Assembly: GCA_947585665.1 (NCBI GenBank)
Contig: CANPXE010000001.1
Span: forward strand, 13,037-77,036
Direction of reading: 5' to 3'
DNA: 64,000 nt
DNA from: an uncultured Bacilli bacterium
GTDB lineage: Bacteria > Bacillota_I > Bacilli_A > RF39 > UBA660
Shown here: positions 40,749 through 47,100 of the stretch, piece after piece
How positions within the stretch are numbered: the first letter of the stretch is position 1
How the letters are laid out: each line of letters starts with the position of its first letter
Notes under the pieces: model-generated
The model's database searches: none
Told to the model about the DNA's origin: nothing
Seen by the model: only the letters and a program-made list of their open reading frames with translations
Position numbers and translations under genes: made by a program

Positions 40749-40824
40749 CTATTTTAATAAATGTAAAAACAATTAAAATAGAATAAAAAAAGGAAAGAAA
40801 ACTCTTTCCTCTAATATTTATAAA

Positions 40825-42960
40825 TTACATGTCAGTAATAGTTGGATCAGTTGGAACAGGTATACTACCATCAGGTTTAGGTATTTCTACTTTAGAGAAA
40901 CCAATTTTATCATCGATACCTTCCATCATATCATCAAAGTCAAAGTCGTCAATAACAGGATTAACATCTAATGGATCAACATTATCTAAACTTAAATCGT
41001 ATAAAGAACTTGTATCACCAGATGTCATCATATTTTCCATAGAAGGATCATTCTCTAAAACATTAGAATTTAGTTCGGCAACACCTGTGTCTGTAGTAGA
41101 CTCTGTTACAGTATCAGTTACAGCTGATGTAACATCAGAAGTTACATCACCAGTTTCAGTAGTTGGTGCTGTACTTACATTTTCTCCTTCACCAATGTCA
41201 GGAATCTCTACATGATTATTATCATCAGTAAGAGGTTCTTCTTCTGGTGCAGGATTTATTGTATCACCTTCAATAGTTCCAGGATCAGTTGTTTCTGGTG
41301 GTTGAACATCACCATTTGCATCAGGAAGTGGATTTCCTTCTTCTGGTGCAGGATTTATTGTATCACCTTCAATAGTTCCAGGATCAGTTGTTTCTGGTGG
41401 TTGAACATCACCATTTGCATCAGGAAGCGGATTTCCCTCTTCTGGTGCTGGATTTGTTGTATCACCTTCAACAGTTCCAGTATCACCTACTTCTGGTTGT
41501 TGAACATCACCATTTGCATCAGGAATTGGTTCCGTACCATCAGCATTTGGTTCAGTAACATTTGAATCACCAGTTTCCTCAGGTGGTGTAAATGTATCTT
41601 CACCAGTATCTATTTCAGGTTCTGGAACTTCTCCTTCGTCATCTGGCACAGCTTCCCAATCACTTTCTCCTCCTATTTCTGGCTCAGGTTCAGTTGTACC
41701 TGGATCATCTGTAGGTGGTGTTTCTTCTGGTGGTTTTTCTTCAGGCGTTTCTGAAGGTTTCTCTTCAGGATTTTCGGTAGGTGGTGTTTCTGGTTGAGTT
41801 TCTTCAGGCTTTACAGCAGGTAGTGGATCTGGTTGTTGAGTTGGCGATGGATTAGTACCACCACCAGAAGGATTTGATGGCGGTATATATCCTATATTAT
41901 TAGATGTACCTCCAGCACTTGTATCATTTTTTTCAGAATCAGAAGATTCTTCTTCATTTGTCTCATCTTTTTTGTTTTCTTCTATCATAGAAAGAATTAT
42001 AGCGCTATTTAAGCCAGGGTATTTTTTTATTAAATCATCATACTCAGTGAGTGTGCTCCACCTATCACTATCGTCATCTTTTATATATTTATTATAAAAC
42101 GACATTACATCATTTTTAAATTCTTCTACTTCTTTTTCATCTAAAAAATAATAATAATAATCAAATTTCTTATCATCGTCAATATCATCTAAATCATATG
42201 AACCACCTGTTAAAGTATAAATATCACTATCAGTCTTAAGAACTAGATTAATAATATCATCAAATGTTAATATATAAGAGCTTAAATTCTCACTTGCTGT
42301 ATTAGCCGTATTAGATATTGCTGTAGAATATTGAGTAATTTCACCACATGTCATTCTATCTGCAGAATCTTTTATATTTAAAAGATTAGAAGAAATTTTA
42401 CTACATTCACCTTTTATATTTAAAAGAGTTGATTCTGTAGTATCTCGAATAAGAAAATCTTTATCTGCTAAAGCAACTACTTTACCTGTTTCAAAACTAA
42501 CACTAGGAAATTCATCTAACTGTTCAGCAATTTTTAATGCATCAAGTTCTCCTTGTGTCTTAGGTGTTAGTTCTGGTGGTTGTTGAGGCATCCTCACTCC
42601 AAGATGTTCATTTGCATAGTTGCACTGTTGGTAATATGTATTCCATGCAGAACACAAAGCATCCCATTCATCTTGTAAAGTTTGATCATCTACTGGAACT
42701 ATTTGATTTACTGTGGACACTATATTACTACAACAACTTGCAATATTCCCTAAAGTATCAGAACCCAAAACATTATCAATTTTACCTATAATTTCATTAA
42801 TTTTATCATAACCTAATTCTGTATGCCACTCATTACCCAAATCTCCTATGTATTCAGTCAACGTACCATTTATAGTAGATATGTCTTCAATATAACCTTT
42901 TATATTTTCTAATTCGTTTTTAATAGTTTTAAATTCATTTTTTGTAACTTTCCTTTTCAC
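40825..42960 (-). CDS. Acidic Pro-rich 711-aa protein; candidate T7SS substrate with WXG-like N-terminal helical domain
   Basis: GTG start after GGAGG. N-terminus ...LTEYIGDLGNEWHTELGYDKINEI... is paralogous to the 43162..43812 product. The centre and C-terminus are P/E/T/D-rich with 33-aa tandem repeats. No signal peptide or TM. Confidence 0.6.
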   Translation of the reverse strand: MKRKVTKNEFKTIKNELENIKGYIEDISTINGTLTEYIGDLGNEWHTELGYDKINEIIGKIDNVLGSDTLGNIASCCSNIVSTVNQIVPVDDQTLQDEWDALCSAWNTYYQQCNYANEHLGVRMPQQPPELTPKTQGELDALKIAEQLDEFPSVSFETGKVVALADKDFLIRDTTESTLLNIKGECSKISSNLLNIKDSADRMTCGEITQYSTAISNTANTASENLSSYILTFDDIINLVLKTDSDIYTLTGGSYDLDDIDDDKKFDYYYYFLDEKEVEEFKNDVMSFYNKYIKDDDSDRWSTLTEYDDLIKKYPGLNSAIILSMIEENKKDETNEEESSDSEKNDTSAGGTSNNIGYIPPSNPSGGGTNPSPTQQPDPLPAVKPEETQPETPPTENPEEKPSETPEEKPPEETPPTDDPGTTEPEPEIGGESDWEAVPDDEGEVPEPEIDTGEDTFTPPEETGDSNVTEPNADGTEPIPDANGDVQQPEVGDTGTVEGDTTNPAPEEGNPLPDANGDVQPPETTDPGTIEGDTINPAPEEGNPLPDANGDVQPPETTDPGTIEGDTINPAPEEEPLTDDNNHVEIPDIGEGENVSTAPTTETGDVTSDVTSAVTDTVTESTTDTGVAELNSNVLENDPSMENMMTSGDTSSLYDLSLDNVDPLDVNPVIDDFDFDDMMEGIDDKIGFSKVEIPKPDGSIPVPTDPTITDM
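41236..41532. repeat. Three tandem 99-bp repeats inside the 711-aa gene
   Basis: Period of 99 bp, verified at three landmark positions (GGTGC at 41250, 41349, 41448). Copies 1 and 2 are nearly identical, and copy 3 has diverged. Each encodes EEGNPLPDANGDVQPPETTDPGTIEGDTINPAP. Confidence 0.9.
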
Positions 42961-43057
42961 AATCGCAATTCCTCCATTTACTAATATCGCTGGTTTTTAT
43001 TTTTAGAAATCATTATTTTATTAGAGAACATAAAATACTCACTATTCTTCTATCCTA

Positions 43058-43087
43058 ATTCTATCATATTTTCTTTAATTTTGTTAA
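43058..43087 (-). promoter_or_regulatory. Putative promoter of the 711-aa gene
   Basis: The minus strand reads TTAACA-18 nt-TAGAAT with a TGa extended -10. Confidence 0.35.
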
Positions 43088-43124
43088 TAAATAATAATTA
43101 TTTAAAAAAAGTTTACACTTTTGA

Positions 43125-43150
43125 CACAAAAAAAGTGCAATAAATGCACT
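43125..43150 (-). terminator. Terminator after the 216-aa gene
   Basis: The minus strand reads AGTGCA-TTTAT-TGCACT followed by TTTTTTTG. Confidence 0.6.
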
Positions 43151-43161
43151 CTCTATTATTG

Positions 43162-43812
43162 TTATCCAGTAACTGTTGAATTGTTTAAAGATCTAGAAAC
43201 ATTTTCTCTATCTTGATCAACATCACTATTAAATGTGCTCATAAATGTTTGAAGAGTTTCATCAAGTTTTTCTTCTACATTTTTTATAGTCGTTTGAATA
43301 ACTACTCTTGGATTAACATCTCCATCAGCACGATAACCAAATTGTTCATCACTTTCTACATAAGGAACAATATTATTTAAGTAAAGTCTCAATTTATCAA
43401 AACCAGCTTTTAATTGATTCTTTACTTCTTCCAAATCAGCATCATCAATATGTGGTCCATCTGGATCATCAAAGTTAATTACTTCAGTAACAATTTCCTT
43501 TTCACTTAATCTATCTAATTGGAATGGTTGTCCTCCTTGTGACATCATATATTGGTTAGCACTAGATAACATAGTTAAATATTGTCTATTAATTGTTTTT
43601 CTTGCTCCATTAAGAAGAGAAGAAACCTTTCCTGCTAACTCATTAGTTTTTGCATATCCCAAAGGTGAATGCCAATGTGCACGCAAATTTGTAAATGCTG
43701 TTTCCAAATCACTTGTACCAGTAGTAACATCTAATCCTACATAGTTCTCAGAAACAGTTTGCATTGCTGTTGTAAAATTTTTAGGTACTAATCCTGAATT
43801 TTGTAGACCCAT
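43162..43812 (-). CDS. 216-aa protein, candidate T7SS substrate/accessory with WXG-like N-terminal domain
   Basis: ...LETAFTNLRAHWHSPLGYAKTNELAGKV... aligns with the N-terminus of the 711-aa protein. No signal peptide. GGAG RBS 8 nt before ATG. Confidence 0.6.
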   Translation of the reverse strand: MGLQNSGLVPKNFTTAMQTVSENYVGLDVTTGTSDLETAFTNLRAHWHSPLGYAKTNELAGKVSSLLNGARKTINRQYLTMLSSANQYMMSQGGQPFQLDRLSEKEIVTEVINFDDPDGPHIDDADLEEVKNQLKAGFDKLRLYLNNIVPYVESDEQFGYRADGDVNPRVVIQTTIKNVEEKLDETLQTFMSTFNSDVDQDRENVSRSLNNSTVTG

Positions 43813-43923
43813 TTTTATCACTCCATTCTTTTATTTTATTTATTTAGGGCTTTCTATCCTACAAATATAATATAAACTAATTTTTTTTGTTTATCTACGC
43901 TTTTGCTTAAATTTTACATAAAT

Positions 43924-44190
43924 TTACATTTGTTTTTCAAATAGAATTAATTCTGAAGCATTTCTTATATCTGTTGTTATAACAATTTCATTATTTAAAT
44001 ATATGCGACCAGTATTTTTATTAATTAAAACATATTTTGATAATTCTTCTTGTGACAAATGACTCATTTCAGGAACAGTTTTTAACAATAATTTTTTTAT
44101 TTTGTATACTGTTTCGTTAACTGGTATAAAGAAATCAGCACTAAAATTCATCTTAGGAATTAATAATTTTATTAAAACTTTATTCTTCAT
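43924..44190 (-). CDS. esaB: YukD/EsaB-like ubiquitin-fold T7SS protein
   Basis: 88 aa. VLIKLLIPKMNFSADFFIPVNETVYKIKKLLLKTV resembles EsaB/YukD (..FD...P....I..LI..). Overlaps the essC stop by 11 nt. Confidence 0.6.
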   Translation of the reverse strand: MKNKVLIKLLIPKMNFSADFFIPVNETVYKIKKLLLKTVPEMSHLSQEELSKYVLINKNTGRIYLNNEIVITTDIRNASELILFEKQM

Positions 44191-47100
44191 TATCGTTCAC
44201 CTCATCCTGTGATAAAAAGTCAAGTATTTTCATCAAAGTTGGTTCGCCATCAATTACAGCATATCCCATATCATTTTTTATTGGCCTATTATATTCATTA
44301 CTATAGGCATCTGTTTTTATTATATTTTGTTCACCAAATCCTTTACCTATCCATATTCCGTATGTACTTGAGCCAAATGATTTCTTATACCAACCATCAT
44401 ATAATACTTCATCAACCTTGTCACCAACTCCAATAATAGCAATCTTTTCATATGCTTTTATTTTTTCAACAAAGAGTGTAAGAACTTTATCATCTACTTC
44501 GCCTTTTAAAGAATTCAAATCATACATTAATAGAACACCATATTCTTTTGAACCTTCGGCAATTTTTTTGTCAATATAAGTTGTTAATTTAGGAATCATA
44601 TCATTAAGATTGCTAGTATAATAATTAGGGTATTCCGTTTTTTCAATTCCTAATTTTTTATTTACATCAAAGATAAAGATATTACAATTTGGAATTAATT
44701 TAATAGTTTTTAAAAGACTTTGAATAAATATATTAATATCTTTTATCTTTTTACCAGCAATTAAAGTAGAACGACTTTCTAAGAAATCAAATAATATAGG
44801 TGAAATATTTGCTTTTGAAAGTCCTACTGGTACAGCACTTAATTTTTGAATAAATGGCTTTACATGTTCTAAACGGACGTGCGCAGGAAGAGTTGGTATT
44901 TTAGGTGCTGAAGTAGGATTTTGTTGCTTAACTAATTGAATAAACTTATCAACAAAAGCATTGAACTCTTCTGGTGTTTTTGTTATCGATCCTGTTTGAA
45001 ATTCATGTAGTTCACCATTGTTTAAGATACCGCGACCAGGATTATCTCTTGGAACAATTTGTTTCTTTGAACCTAATACATAGCCATATTCAAATTGATC
45101 TTTCAATTTATACGTATAAATTTGTGTAAAGTTTTGTGAAACCTTTTGTCGAACAGAATTAGTAGCAAGTCCAGATACAACAAAGACAATTCCATAACGG
45201 GCTGAATCTCTTGTTATTTCAGGCATTGTTTCATAAGAATCTTGATTGGCTTCAGCATAAGCATCATAGTTATTAATAATTATTACTTTTAAAGGTAGTT
45301 TCTTACCACTACTCTTTATGTAGTTCATATAAGATCCACCATAATCTGTGAATAATTTTTTACGTTTAACAATTTCATCACGAATCATTTTTACTAAACT
45401 ATTATATTTTTCTGTTTCTTCGGCAAAAACCATTCCACCAACTTGTGGTAGTTTTGAGAATTTGCGAAGCGACTCAGAACCATAATCAATTATATAAAAG
45501 TTAACCTCTTCAGCAGTATGAAGACGAGATGTTGAATATATTAAAGCATTAAAGAACATTTCTGAGTCACCATTATCATTACTATATGTAATAGCACTAC
45601 CATCTTCAAAGAAATTGTACTTAACAATTCCTTGTTGTTGTAACTCAGGAGCATCATATTCACCAATAATTGCTTCAACTTGATATGGCACAGGTCTAAC
45701 ATTATATTTATTGATTATTTCATCAATGACAATATCTTGGGGAATATTATCAAGCCATAATCTCTTAGCTTTAACATTATTAATATTTGAAACTTCTATT
45801 ATGTTTTTCATAACCGCAGCTAATTGCTCACCTTGAGCTTCAACTTTAACGTCATTAGTTTCTTCAACACTTCTAATTATATCAGCACAATCATTGATGT
45901 AATCAACACTTTTATCAACTTGTTTAACAATCCTATCAGAAGGATAATATTTAGCTCCACACCAACCAGATTGACCTAGAGCATATATTTCATCATATCC
46001 AACTTGTAAGAAATAGCGTCCAGCTTGGGAAATGTGAGCAGCATCAGGATGTTTTAACATTTCATTACTATCTGGTTCACTAGCAACTTTTAAACAAACA
46101 CGGAACTTTGTATTTGACCAAATTTGATCATTGACAACACCACTTGGTTTTTGGGTTGCCAAAATTAAGTGAACTCCTAAACTACGTCCAATACGCGCAA
46201 TACTAATCAAGTTGTCCATGAAATCTGGTTGTTGCGCTTTTAATTCAGCAAACTCATCACAAATGATGAACAAATGAGGAATTGGTTCTTTCAATCTACC
46301 ATCTTTAAAATGCCTTTGATATTTATAGATGTCCATGGTACTTTCACCTAAGGCATCACGAGCTTCATTAAACACTTTTTGACGACGTTTAACTTCGCTA
46401 TCAATACTTACTAAAGTTCTATCCATCTCAGCTTTATCGAGGTTTGTTATAGTACCTGCCAAATGTGGAAGAGTTACTCCTGTCAACTTATTTTCAAAAG
46501 CAAGTGCAAGTCCTCCACCTTTATAGTCAATCAAAATGAAAGCAACATCATTAGGACTATAATTAATACACATTGATAAAATATAGGTAATGATAAATTC
46601 AGATTTACCAGAACCAGTAGTACCAGCAATAAGTCCATGTGGTCCATGATATTTTTCATGTAAATCCAAATACATTAACTCTTGTTTAGCATTAACACCA
46701 ATTTCTGCTTTTAAAGAAGTTGTCGCATCATTATTATTCCAACGATTTAAAATATTCAATTGTTCAACTTTACCAACTTTTTCCATTTCTAAGAAACTTA
46801 TAGAATTAGGAAGAGACCCTACCTTTTCTTCAAACTCAATTGGTAAATTAGAAACAATTCTACTAATATCCATATAATTAATATTTGAACAAACTTCATC
46901 AGTAAATTGAATATACTCTTGGCTATCAAAATTACTCTTCAATAAACCGGATTTTGAAGATTCAGAAACATCAATATAATTGTTACACTTACTTGGTAAC
47001 TTACTCAAACTTTGAGCAACAATTATCATACTGAAACCTAAATTATTATCATTTTCAGCAATATTATTGACGAATTCATATTCTTTAACACGATCATAAT

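Follow-up and report, generated by a model that had tools for sequence, protein, structure and literature searches.

A predicted double-hairpin protein in the WXG100 slot of a putatively exchangeable type VII secretion cassette from uncultured gut Bacilli

[quoted passage not shown] The WXG100 proteins (EsxA/EsxB, ESAT-6/CFP-10; PF06013) fill the TsxA component common to T7SSa–j (PMC11217815, PMC3935865), and their C-terminal helix follows the pattern HxxxD/ExxhxxxH (PMC3935865). EspB, a substrate of the mycobacterial ESX-1 system, forms a PE/PPE-like bundle of four helices from a single chain, with WxG and YxxD at the same end (PMC8313811). Here, we describe a T7SS-like locus in a 64,000-nucleotide stretch of DNA (the window) from an uncultured Bacilli bacterium (GenBank assembly GCA_947585665.1, contig CANPXE010000001.1, positions 13,037–77,036). 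In this locus, essC and a yukD-like gene are followed by a gene for a 216-residue protein, for which we use the working name X215 (its residue numbering follows a 219-residue open reading frame, ORF), and by a gene for a 711-residue protein. The genome that holds the window, G000, is a 1.49-Mb metagenome-assembled genome (MAG) from a rabbit-gut metagenome and is 94.9% complete; other G numbers denote genomes of relatives, P numbers homologous proteins, and L numbers their loci.

X215 resembles the WXG100 proteins in being small, acidic, and signal-less, in having a Trp at a predicted helix–turn–helix turn, and in its place beside EssC/EccC and YukD. It differs from them in being one chain of about 215 residues with two different hairpins, whereas WXG100 proteins are dimers of 100-residue chains, and in its turns, the first of which reads W-x-[ST]-x-x-G rather than W-x-G and the second FGY..NPR. 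Judged from the predicted model, the closest design parallel is EspB: in both proteins, linker-joined hairpins in one polypeptide form a bundle that others build from two proteins, and in both, one end of the bundle holds the turn motif together with the C-terminal part. Unlike X215, EspB belongs to the T7SSa of Actinomycetota, is larger, has its YxxD hairpin ahead of its WxG hairpin, and carries a processed C-terminal domain. Structures of EspB are present in the PDB, and EspB was returned neither by a profile search of PDB sequences nor by a Foldseek search with X215, so that the design principle alone is common to the two. On balance, we favor the reading that X215 is an EsxA-equivalent, that is, a fused and highly diverged WXG100-like double hairpin exported by EssC, and that the 711-residue protein is a cargo carrying an X215-type handle.

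All four genes lie on the minus strand, in the order essC, yukD-like ORF, X215 gene, and 711-residue gene. The first (44180–48742) encodes a bona fide EssC, a membrane FtsK/SpoIIIE-type T7SS ATPase of 1520 residues, which scores 945 bits against TIGR03928 (cut-off 778), matches PF01580 at 1.6e-37, and has two transmembrane (TM) segments within residues 255–316. The end of essC overlaps by 11 nucleotides with an ORF for an 88-residue ubiquitin-like protein (43924–44190), for which weak ubiquitin-like matches alone were obtained (UBL_UBAC1, E 0.0026). Orthologues of this ORF stand immediately 3′ of EssC in 19 loci of relatives, and one of them matches PF08817 (YukD) at E 0.032 with the whole model covered; position, size, and these weak profile matches suggest a YukD/EsaB-like protein. 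The X215 gene (43162–43812), whose product has an isoelectric point (pI) of 4.6, is open back to a GTG at 43821 (43162–43821, 219 residues), and its true start is likely the ATG at 43812, which follows a GGAG ribosome-binding site and gives the 216-residue product. The 711-residue gene (40825–42960) starts with GTG after GGAGG and encodes an acidic product (pI 4.05). Both ORFs are real, and a first-pass annotation of this DNA had placed both genes directly downstream of essC–yukD. The same annotation had seen no Sec signal in either protein, and the maximum 19-residue Kyte–Doolittle scores bear this out (0.28 for X215 and 1.01 for the 711-residue protein), neither protein having a hydrophobic N terminus or a TM segment.

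X215 has no match in Pfam or NCBIfam, and no member of its family carries a name in the sources that we checked, in keeping with the earlier remark that its motif was not recognizable as that of a described family. The family is rare: a word-index homology search found only three close relatives, and when 1.84 billion representative proteins were scanned in full with HMMER, 13 clusters were obtained at E<1e-10, with lengths of 214–231 residues and one exception of 326 residues. In a set of 401 genomes sampled evenly across the class, X215 was found in G000 only; among 60 relatives, it was found in G010 (an “uncultured Bacilli bacterium” MAG from rabbit) and as a contig-end fragment in G003, with no others, and a related-locus search with a five-sequence alignment returned G010 only. 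Weak matches of the X215 profile in G026, G135, and G373 were rejected, as these were RNase III and unrelated phage-like or helical ORFs. Searches with both proteins and with the family profile against Pfam, NCBIfam, and PDB sequences gave nothing meaningful, and matches to keratin, apolipoprotein, and SNARE proteins were dismissed as coiled-coil noise. The window protein shares 93% identity with a homologue of a different sample and keeps all family-invariant residues. Two unusual arrangements were seen within the family: three X215 paralogues (210 residues, partial; 212 residues; 230 residues) stand head to tail on one short metagenome contig (L072, 2–2402), and the P0006 protein (L069, 3191–4171) has a C-terminal extension of about 110 residues past the double hairpin.

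Conservation was counted in a family alignment of 17 X215 members (A2), which also served for AlphaFold2. In the first-turn motif, W, [ST] at +2, G at +5, and [YWF] at +6 each occur in all 17 members and also in the 711-residue protein. An H at +1 was seen in 6/17 members and an L at +4 in 4/17; since H and L are confined to the closest relatives, the family motif is W-x-[ST]-x-x-G-[YWF]. Of the motif W-H-[ST]-x-L-G-Y in the first-pass annotation, the W, [ST], G, and aromatic positions are thus retained and the H and L are lost. In X215 itself, the motif reads W50-H-S-P-L-G55-Y56 (codons 43654–43674, minus strand). Invariant positions include W50, G55, G162, P171, R172, and D204, and F161 is present in 16 of the 17 members. 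Several of these residues belong to a second-turn motif, F161-G-Y...N170-P-R172 (codons 43306–43341, minus strand), and D204 to a conserved C-terminal pattern, h193-x3-h197-x3-h201-x2-D204-[KR].

A similarly spaced motif was noticed outside the family. In G014, which belongs to a sister EssC clade, a gene for a 241-residue protein right after YukD (L047, 8572–9297) carries STEWYTPEGVDFF, with W-x-T-x-x-G spacing. In this protein (G014a), W-Y-T-P-E-G stands at the relative place of the X215 motif; no significant profile similarity between the protein and X215 was found, and we treat the observation as a lead only.

The AlphaFold2 model of X215 based on the 17-sequence alignment (predicted local distance difference test, pLDDT, 89.1; predicted template modeling score, pTM, 0.83) predicts two helix–turn–helix hairpins, each of 85–95 residues, like a single WXG100 protein, that pack together into a four-helix bundle. 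Hairpin 1 comprises helices 13–29 and 38–49, the turn W50-H51-S52, and helix 53–94. An extended linker of about 30 residues (95–126) leads to hairpin 2, which comprises helix 127–149, two short helical turns to residue 161, the FGY..NPR turn (161–172), and helix 171–218. DSSP assigns a backbone bridge between residues 50–51 and 124–125, so that the W-turn adjoins the beginning of hairpin 2. Judging from the helix directions in the model, the W-turn would also adjoin the C-terminal end of the last helix, and the two hairpins would be arranged antiparallel to each other, as in a WXG100 dimer. For residues 1–340 of the 711-residue protein, the model shows, in its first 120 residues (pLDDT 70–83), an X215-like hairpin plus a third helix (helix 7–44, turn W45-H46-T47, helix 48–85, and helix 93–120), followed by a helical region (121–340) of low to moderate confidence. 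Helical hairpins are thus predicted for both proteins, and in both models, a Trp sits at the helix–turn–helix turn, as the first-pass annotation had expected for its Trp..Gly turn. The resemblance to the helix–WxG–helix hairpin that it had proposed stands as regards a hairpin with Trp at the turn, and fails as regards a single WXG100-like hairpin, X215 being a double one.

The N-terminal regions of X215 and the 711-residue protein are related beyond what chance would be expected to produce. BLASTP aligns them with 15/40 identities (E 3e-6), and hhalign aligns residues 9–67 of the 711-residue protein (as residues 1–340) with residues 12–72 of the X215 family profile (E 8e-6, probability 83.5%). 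When a hidden Markov model of the N-terminal half of the family was run against the 5660 stop-to-stop ORFs of G000, it matched X215 (7e-30) and the 711-residue protein (6e-7) and no others. An alignment over the first ~90 residues had been claimed earlier; the relatedness holds, and it is significant over about 60 residues rather than 90. The corresponding stretch of the gene (42757–42936, minus strand) encodes residues 9–68, similar to X215 residues 12–72, and includes the codons for W45-H-T-E-L-G50-Y51 (42808–42828, minus strand). The 711-residue protein keeps every family-invariant motif position (W, [ST], G, and the aromatic residue) as well as the upstream hydrophobic positions.

The remainder of the 711-residue protein is of a different nature. 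Residues 341–711 form a low-complexity region rich in Pro, Glu, Asp, and Thr with 33-residue repeats, and the protein as a whole is 16% Pro and very acidic. The word-index search found only a near-identical copy. P0004 (678 residues) matches the 711-residue protein identically save for the lack of exactly one 33-residue repeat unit (window 41236–41532, residues ~477–575); the number of repeats may truly vary, or the repeat may have collapsed in another assembly of the same or a near-identical sample. Terminator-like and promoter-like elements, found by palindrome scan, strand read, or consensus match only, accompany the two genes, all on the minus strand: a terminator-like hairpin, AGTGCA-ttatt-TGCACT with a T-run (TTTTTTT), directly after the X215 stop (43126–43150); a promoter-like site, TTAACA-18-TAGAAT with extended TG, 5′ of the 711-residue gene (43058–43087); and a terminator-like hairpin with a 10-bp stem and T-run after that gene (40789–40812). 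The next gene is a D-Ala-D-Ala carboxypeptidase-like dacA.

The candidate export handle of the 711-residue protein recalls other T7SS cargo. Like the LXG toxins with their Lap partners (T7SSb) and the PE_PGRS and PPE-MPTR proteins (T7SSa), the protein has an N-terminal helical domain, putatively for targeting, and a long passenger; as in these types, the N-domain is related to the small hairpin proteins of the system, and the gene adjoins secretion genes. Unlike in LXG toxins, the passenger consists of acidic repeats and has no recognizable toxin domain, PF04740 (LXG) matches neither this protein nor anything else in G000, and no immunity-like gene follows, dacA being next. One could instead regard the N-terminal similarity as a functionless remnant of a partial duplication, in which case the 711-residue protein would be no T7SS client; it could, for instance, be an acidic repeat protein that stays in the cytoplasm or leaves by another route and happens to lie between the cassette and dacA. 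The promoter-like site and terminator of the gene fit this explanation, as do the low confidence of the model beyond residue 120, the lack of homologues outside near-identical assemblies, and the absence of the gene from all other X215 loci, where another gene, described below, stands in its position. However, the retention of the invariant motif and of the upstream hydrophobic positions argues for selection on the hairpin, the gene lies inside the swapped cassette, and a very acidic, Pro-rich protein with neither signal peptide nor TM segment has no other obvious export route. We consider a functionless remnant quite improbable.

X215 occurs in a genome in which several usual T7SS parts could not be found. 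No WXG100 protein was matched in G000 even at E≤1, and local profiles of the small WXG100-like proteins of relatives gave no match either. YukC/EssB and EsaA were likewise without a match in G000 (PF10140, TIGR03929; EssA was not searched for), and across the genus these two profiles gave nothing save one sub-threshold EsaA-like match in G001. Positive controls for the missing-part searches were found in G038 and B. subtilis.

By the usual criteria, X215 is not a WXG100 member. PF06013 matches neither the window X215 at E≤1 nor the 711-residue protein, and the glycine of the turn stands at +5 from the Trp in all 17 members and in the 711-residue protein, which departs from the W-x-G turn. A remote relationship is suggested, weakly, by profile–profile comparison. 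Both halves of X215 score best against a cluster of T7SS-linked, ~100-residue proteins of relatives, which includes members above the Pfam cut-off, with scores of 22.5 and 23.1 (P ~0.001 each); reversed alignments gave 14.6 and 18.2, 40 column shuffles gave at most 15.1, and the YukD cluster, used as a control against the X215 halves, gave P values of 0.14–0.27. The halves may thus be remote homologues of WXG100-like proteins. The candidate “new T7SS substrate family replacing WXG100” of the first-pass annotation is supported as far as the replacement goes, with no WXG100 match in G000 and WXG100-like genes in the same slot elsewhere; rather than a new family, X215 is more likely a fused, very diverged derivative of the WXG100-like superfamily.

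Several results weigh against X215 being an exported WXG100 equivalent. In the X215 family, only two of the 17 members match PF06013, at best with E 0.14, which is below threshold. The family profile retrieved no Esx, EspB, or LXG protein among PDB sequences, and no similarity was detectable between the N- and C-terminal halves, and hence no internal duplication. The pattern HxxxD/ExxhxxxH is not matched, as the spacing of residues 193, 197, 201, D204, and [KR]205 differs. Foldseek searches of the PDB gave nothing significant for either model (best E 0.17 for X215 and 0.48 for the 711-residue protein), and the top 50 hits contained ferritin-, MukF-, and F-BAR-type bundles as the best ones and no T7SS substrate (Esx, LXG, or EspB); the likeness to WXG100 and LXG substrates suggested earlier thus has no counterpart in the PDB for either model, although we consider this null result uninformative for long helical bundles rather than evidence against the likeness. 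The modest quality of the model of residues 1–340 of the 711-residue protein (pLDDT 63, pTM 0.33) also counts on this side. Because G000 is a MAG that is 94.9% complete, the remainder of the genome could contain a WXG100 gene. No RNA runs containing the locus were found. Finally, retention of the gene 1:1 with EssC would be equally compatible with a chaperone or a cytoplasmic part of the machine, a role that is considered below.

Genomic context ties X215 to EssC. EssC–YukD lies immediately upstream of X215 in all eight loci with enough upstream sequence, so that the linkage to essC on which the first-pass annotation had leaned extends to every informative homologue. The order EssC (~1520 residues), YukD-like protein (87 residues), and X215 was seen in the loci of G000, G010, P0009, P0013, P0010, P0006, and P0016; the P0008 locus begins just past a truncated upstream gene. 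In one locus (L061, 5191–9611), EssC is split into ORFs of 1258 and 198 residues, possibly by a frameshift or an assembly error, and two near-identical samples have one 1520-residue ORF there. In the EssC tree, the sequences from X215 loci group in a single clade (support 100/98), apart from the other EssCs of the same genus.

Most X215 loci continue with three further genes, X288, X70, and X465 (L062, 10794–13278; L058, 6363–8837; L057, 2473–4919; and, in G010, L045, 9590–10664), all of which are missing from G000 and none of which has a Pfam match. X288, a helical protein of about 288 residues, carries W-x-[ST]-x-K-[AS]-x-Y around position 40; X70 is likewise helical and small (about 70 residues), and X465 (about 465 residues) has one TM helix and an HExxH motif and may be a membrane-anchored metalloprotease. 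X288 matches a 184-residue protein of a sister cassette (hhalign E 4e-5), which in turn matches PF06013 at a sub-threshold E of 4e-4; by profile comparison, X288 thus appears linked to WXG100-like domains more clearly than X215 is. Neither X215 nor the 711-residue protein is significantly similar to X288 by hhalign, and we do not claim the 711-residue protein as an X288 homologue, as the two have their position alone in common. The P0006 locus stops after X215: EssC–YukD–X215 is followed by an aldehyde dehydrogenase gene, which makes it a three-gene cassette.

The cassette occupies a fixed chromosomal position between a lipoprotein gene and dacA–rluB. The flanking lipoprotein, DacA, and RluB genes are 67–85% identical among G000, G010 (L045), G002 (L053), and G009 (L054), whereas EssC and YukD of G000 are 65–71% identical to those of G010 and only 36–38% identical to those of G002 and G009. 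In the cassette of the G002/G009 type, the slot after YukD holds five or six genes for ~100-residue proteins, several of which match PF06013, sub-threshold or above. This comparison of one site places X215 in the slot of the WXG100-like genes of the alternative cassette, co-varying with EssC type, and indicates that the whole EssC–YukD–substrate block behaves as a swappable cassette. The lipoprotein gene just upstream of essC (window 48840–50456) is conserved with either cassette type (67–79% identity) and is therefore part of the chromosomal flank rather than of the swapped T7SS cassette. X215, which the first-pass annotation read as cargo or targeting adaptor, is a conserved core gene of its cassette rather than variable cargo.

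Similar modules are known from the EssC variants of S. aureus and Listeria (PMC5994694, PMC10327511), in which downstream substrate genes also co-vary with EssC type. The present cassette differs from them in that the whole EssC–YukD pair is swapped (36–38% identity), not just the EssC C terminus, and in that the small WXG100-like genes are absent and X215 stands in their place. In a survey of T7SS variants T7SSa–j built from RefSeq (PMC11217815), we found neither a system with this gene set nor a mention of a fused double hairpin as TsxA. The novelty of the present cassette lies in the replacement of the small WXG100-like genes themselves.

The lack of X288, X70, and X465 in G000, conserved as they are in most X215 loci, could also mean that the cassette has ceased to function and is decaying in G000, with X215 and the 711-residue gene as leftovers of a T7SS that has lost these three proteins and its membrane partners; the split EssC in one related sample would fit. 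On the other hand, none of the four ORFs is interrupted or short, their ribosome-binding sites are good, and X215 has kept every family-invariant residue at 93% identity to its homologue from another sample. Degeneracy in the distal ATPase domains, where present, would not speak for decay, being normal in EssC/EccC. We regard decay as very improbable.

With X215 as the favored EsxA-equivalent, the locus would be a pared-down T7SS cassette of EssC, a YukD-like ubiquitin-fold protein, X215, and the 711-residue protein. X215 would be recognized and exported by the EssC ATPase and would probably be needed for the machine to work. The function of the WXG100 dimer would be taken over by its two hairpins, joined by the ~30-residue linker; two WXG100-sized hairpins in one chain would make the four-helix bundle within one molecule. 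The W-x-[ST]-x-x-G turn near the C-terminal end of the last helix would reproduce the bipartite signal geometry of EsxA/EsxB and EspB, in which WxG is combined with a C-terminal tail. The 711-residue protein would most likely be a cargo, exported by means of its copy of hairpin 1 of X215, and might pair with X215. By analogy, several traits of X215 look substrate-like, namely the tandem paralogues, the C-terminal extension in one member, an acidic pI with neither TM segment nor signal peptide, and a terminator of its own.

The alternative that bears most directly on this is that X215 stays in the cytoplasm as an adaptor, chaperone, or EssC accessory (Lap-, EsaE-, or EspG-like, or a stand-in for EssB) and presents the N-domains of cargo, such as the 711-residue protein or X288, to the ATPase. 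An adaptor would explain why the gene is kept 1:1 with EssC–YukD and why X215 does not show the canonical secretion-signal pattern; the first hairpin, common to the N terminus of the 711-residue protein, could be a pairing surface, and in most loci X215 is followed by the X288/X70 pair, reminiscent of an LXG-like protein and its small helical partner. Yet the P0006 locus has no other T7SS-like gene beyond EssC–YukD–X215 and so offers no client to chaperone, and tandem triplication and a passenger-like C-terminal extension are typical of substrates. Adaptor and substrate roles also often coincide in T7SSs, EsxA and Laps being co-secreted. A purely cytoplasmic role thus seems unlikely to us.

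A bolder version of the favored reading goes further: EssC, the YukD-like protein, and X215 would form a complete, self-sufficient T7SS, the smallest natural one. X215 would then be an obligate single-chain pseudo-heterodimer whose W-x4-G turn and C-terminal helix form an intramolecular bipartite signal, and its first hairpin would be a portable module, attachable to unrelated cargo, of which the 711-residue protein would be an example. We put this forward tentatively and consider it doubtful in its full form.

The organism is uncultured, and what is said here beyond linkage and predicted fold is what we infer from them. At that strength, the locus extends the T7SS substrate repertoire by an unannotated family, with X215 presumed to be secreted, and presents a single fused chain in place of a dimer in a genome in which EssB and EsaA were not detected either. 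It would offer a natural, minimal three- or four-gene system for asking what EssC actually recognizes, whether the four-helix bundle is the true export unit, and whether one hairpin suffices as a targeting handle. For the reduced-genome gut Bacilli that carry it, the comparison of loci indicates that whole EssC–YukD–substrate cassettes are exchanged at one chromosomal site.

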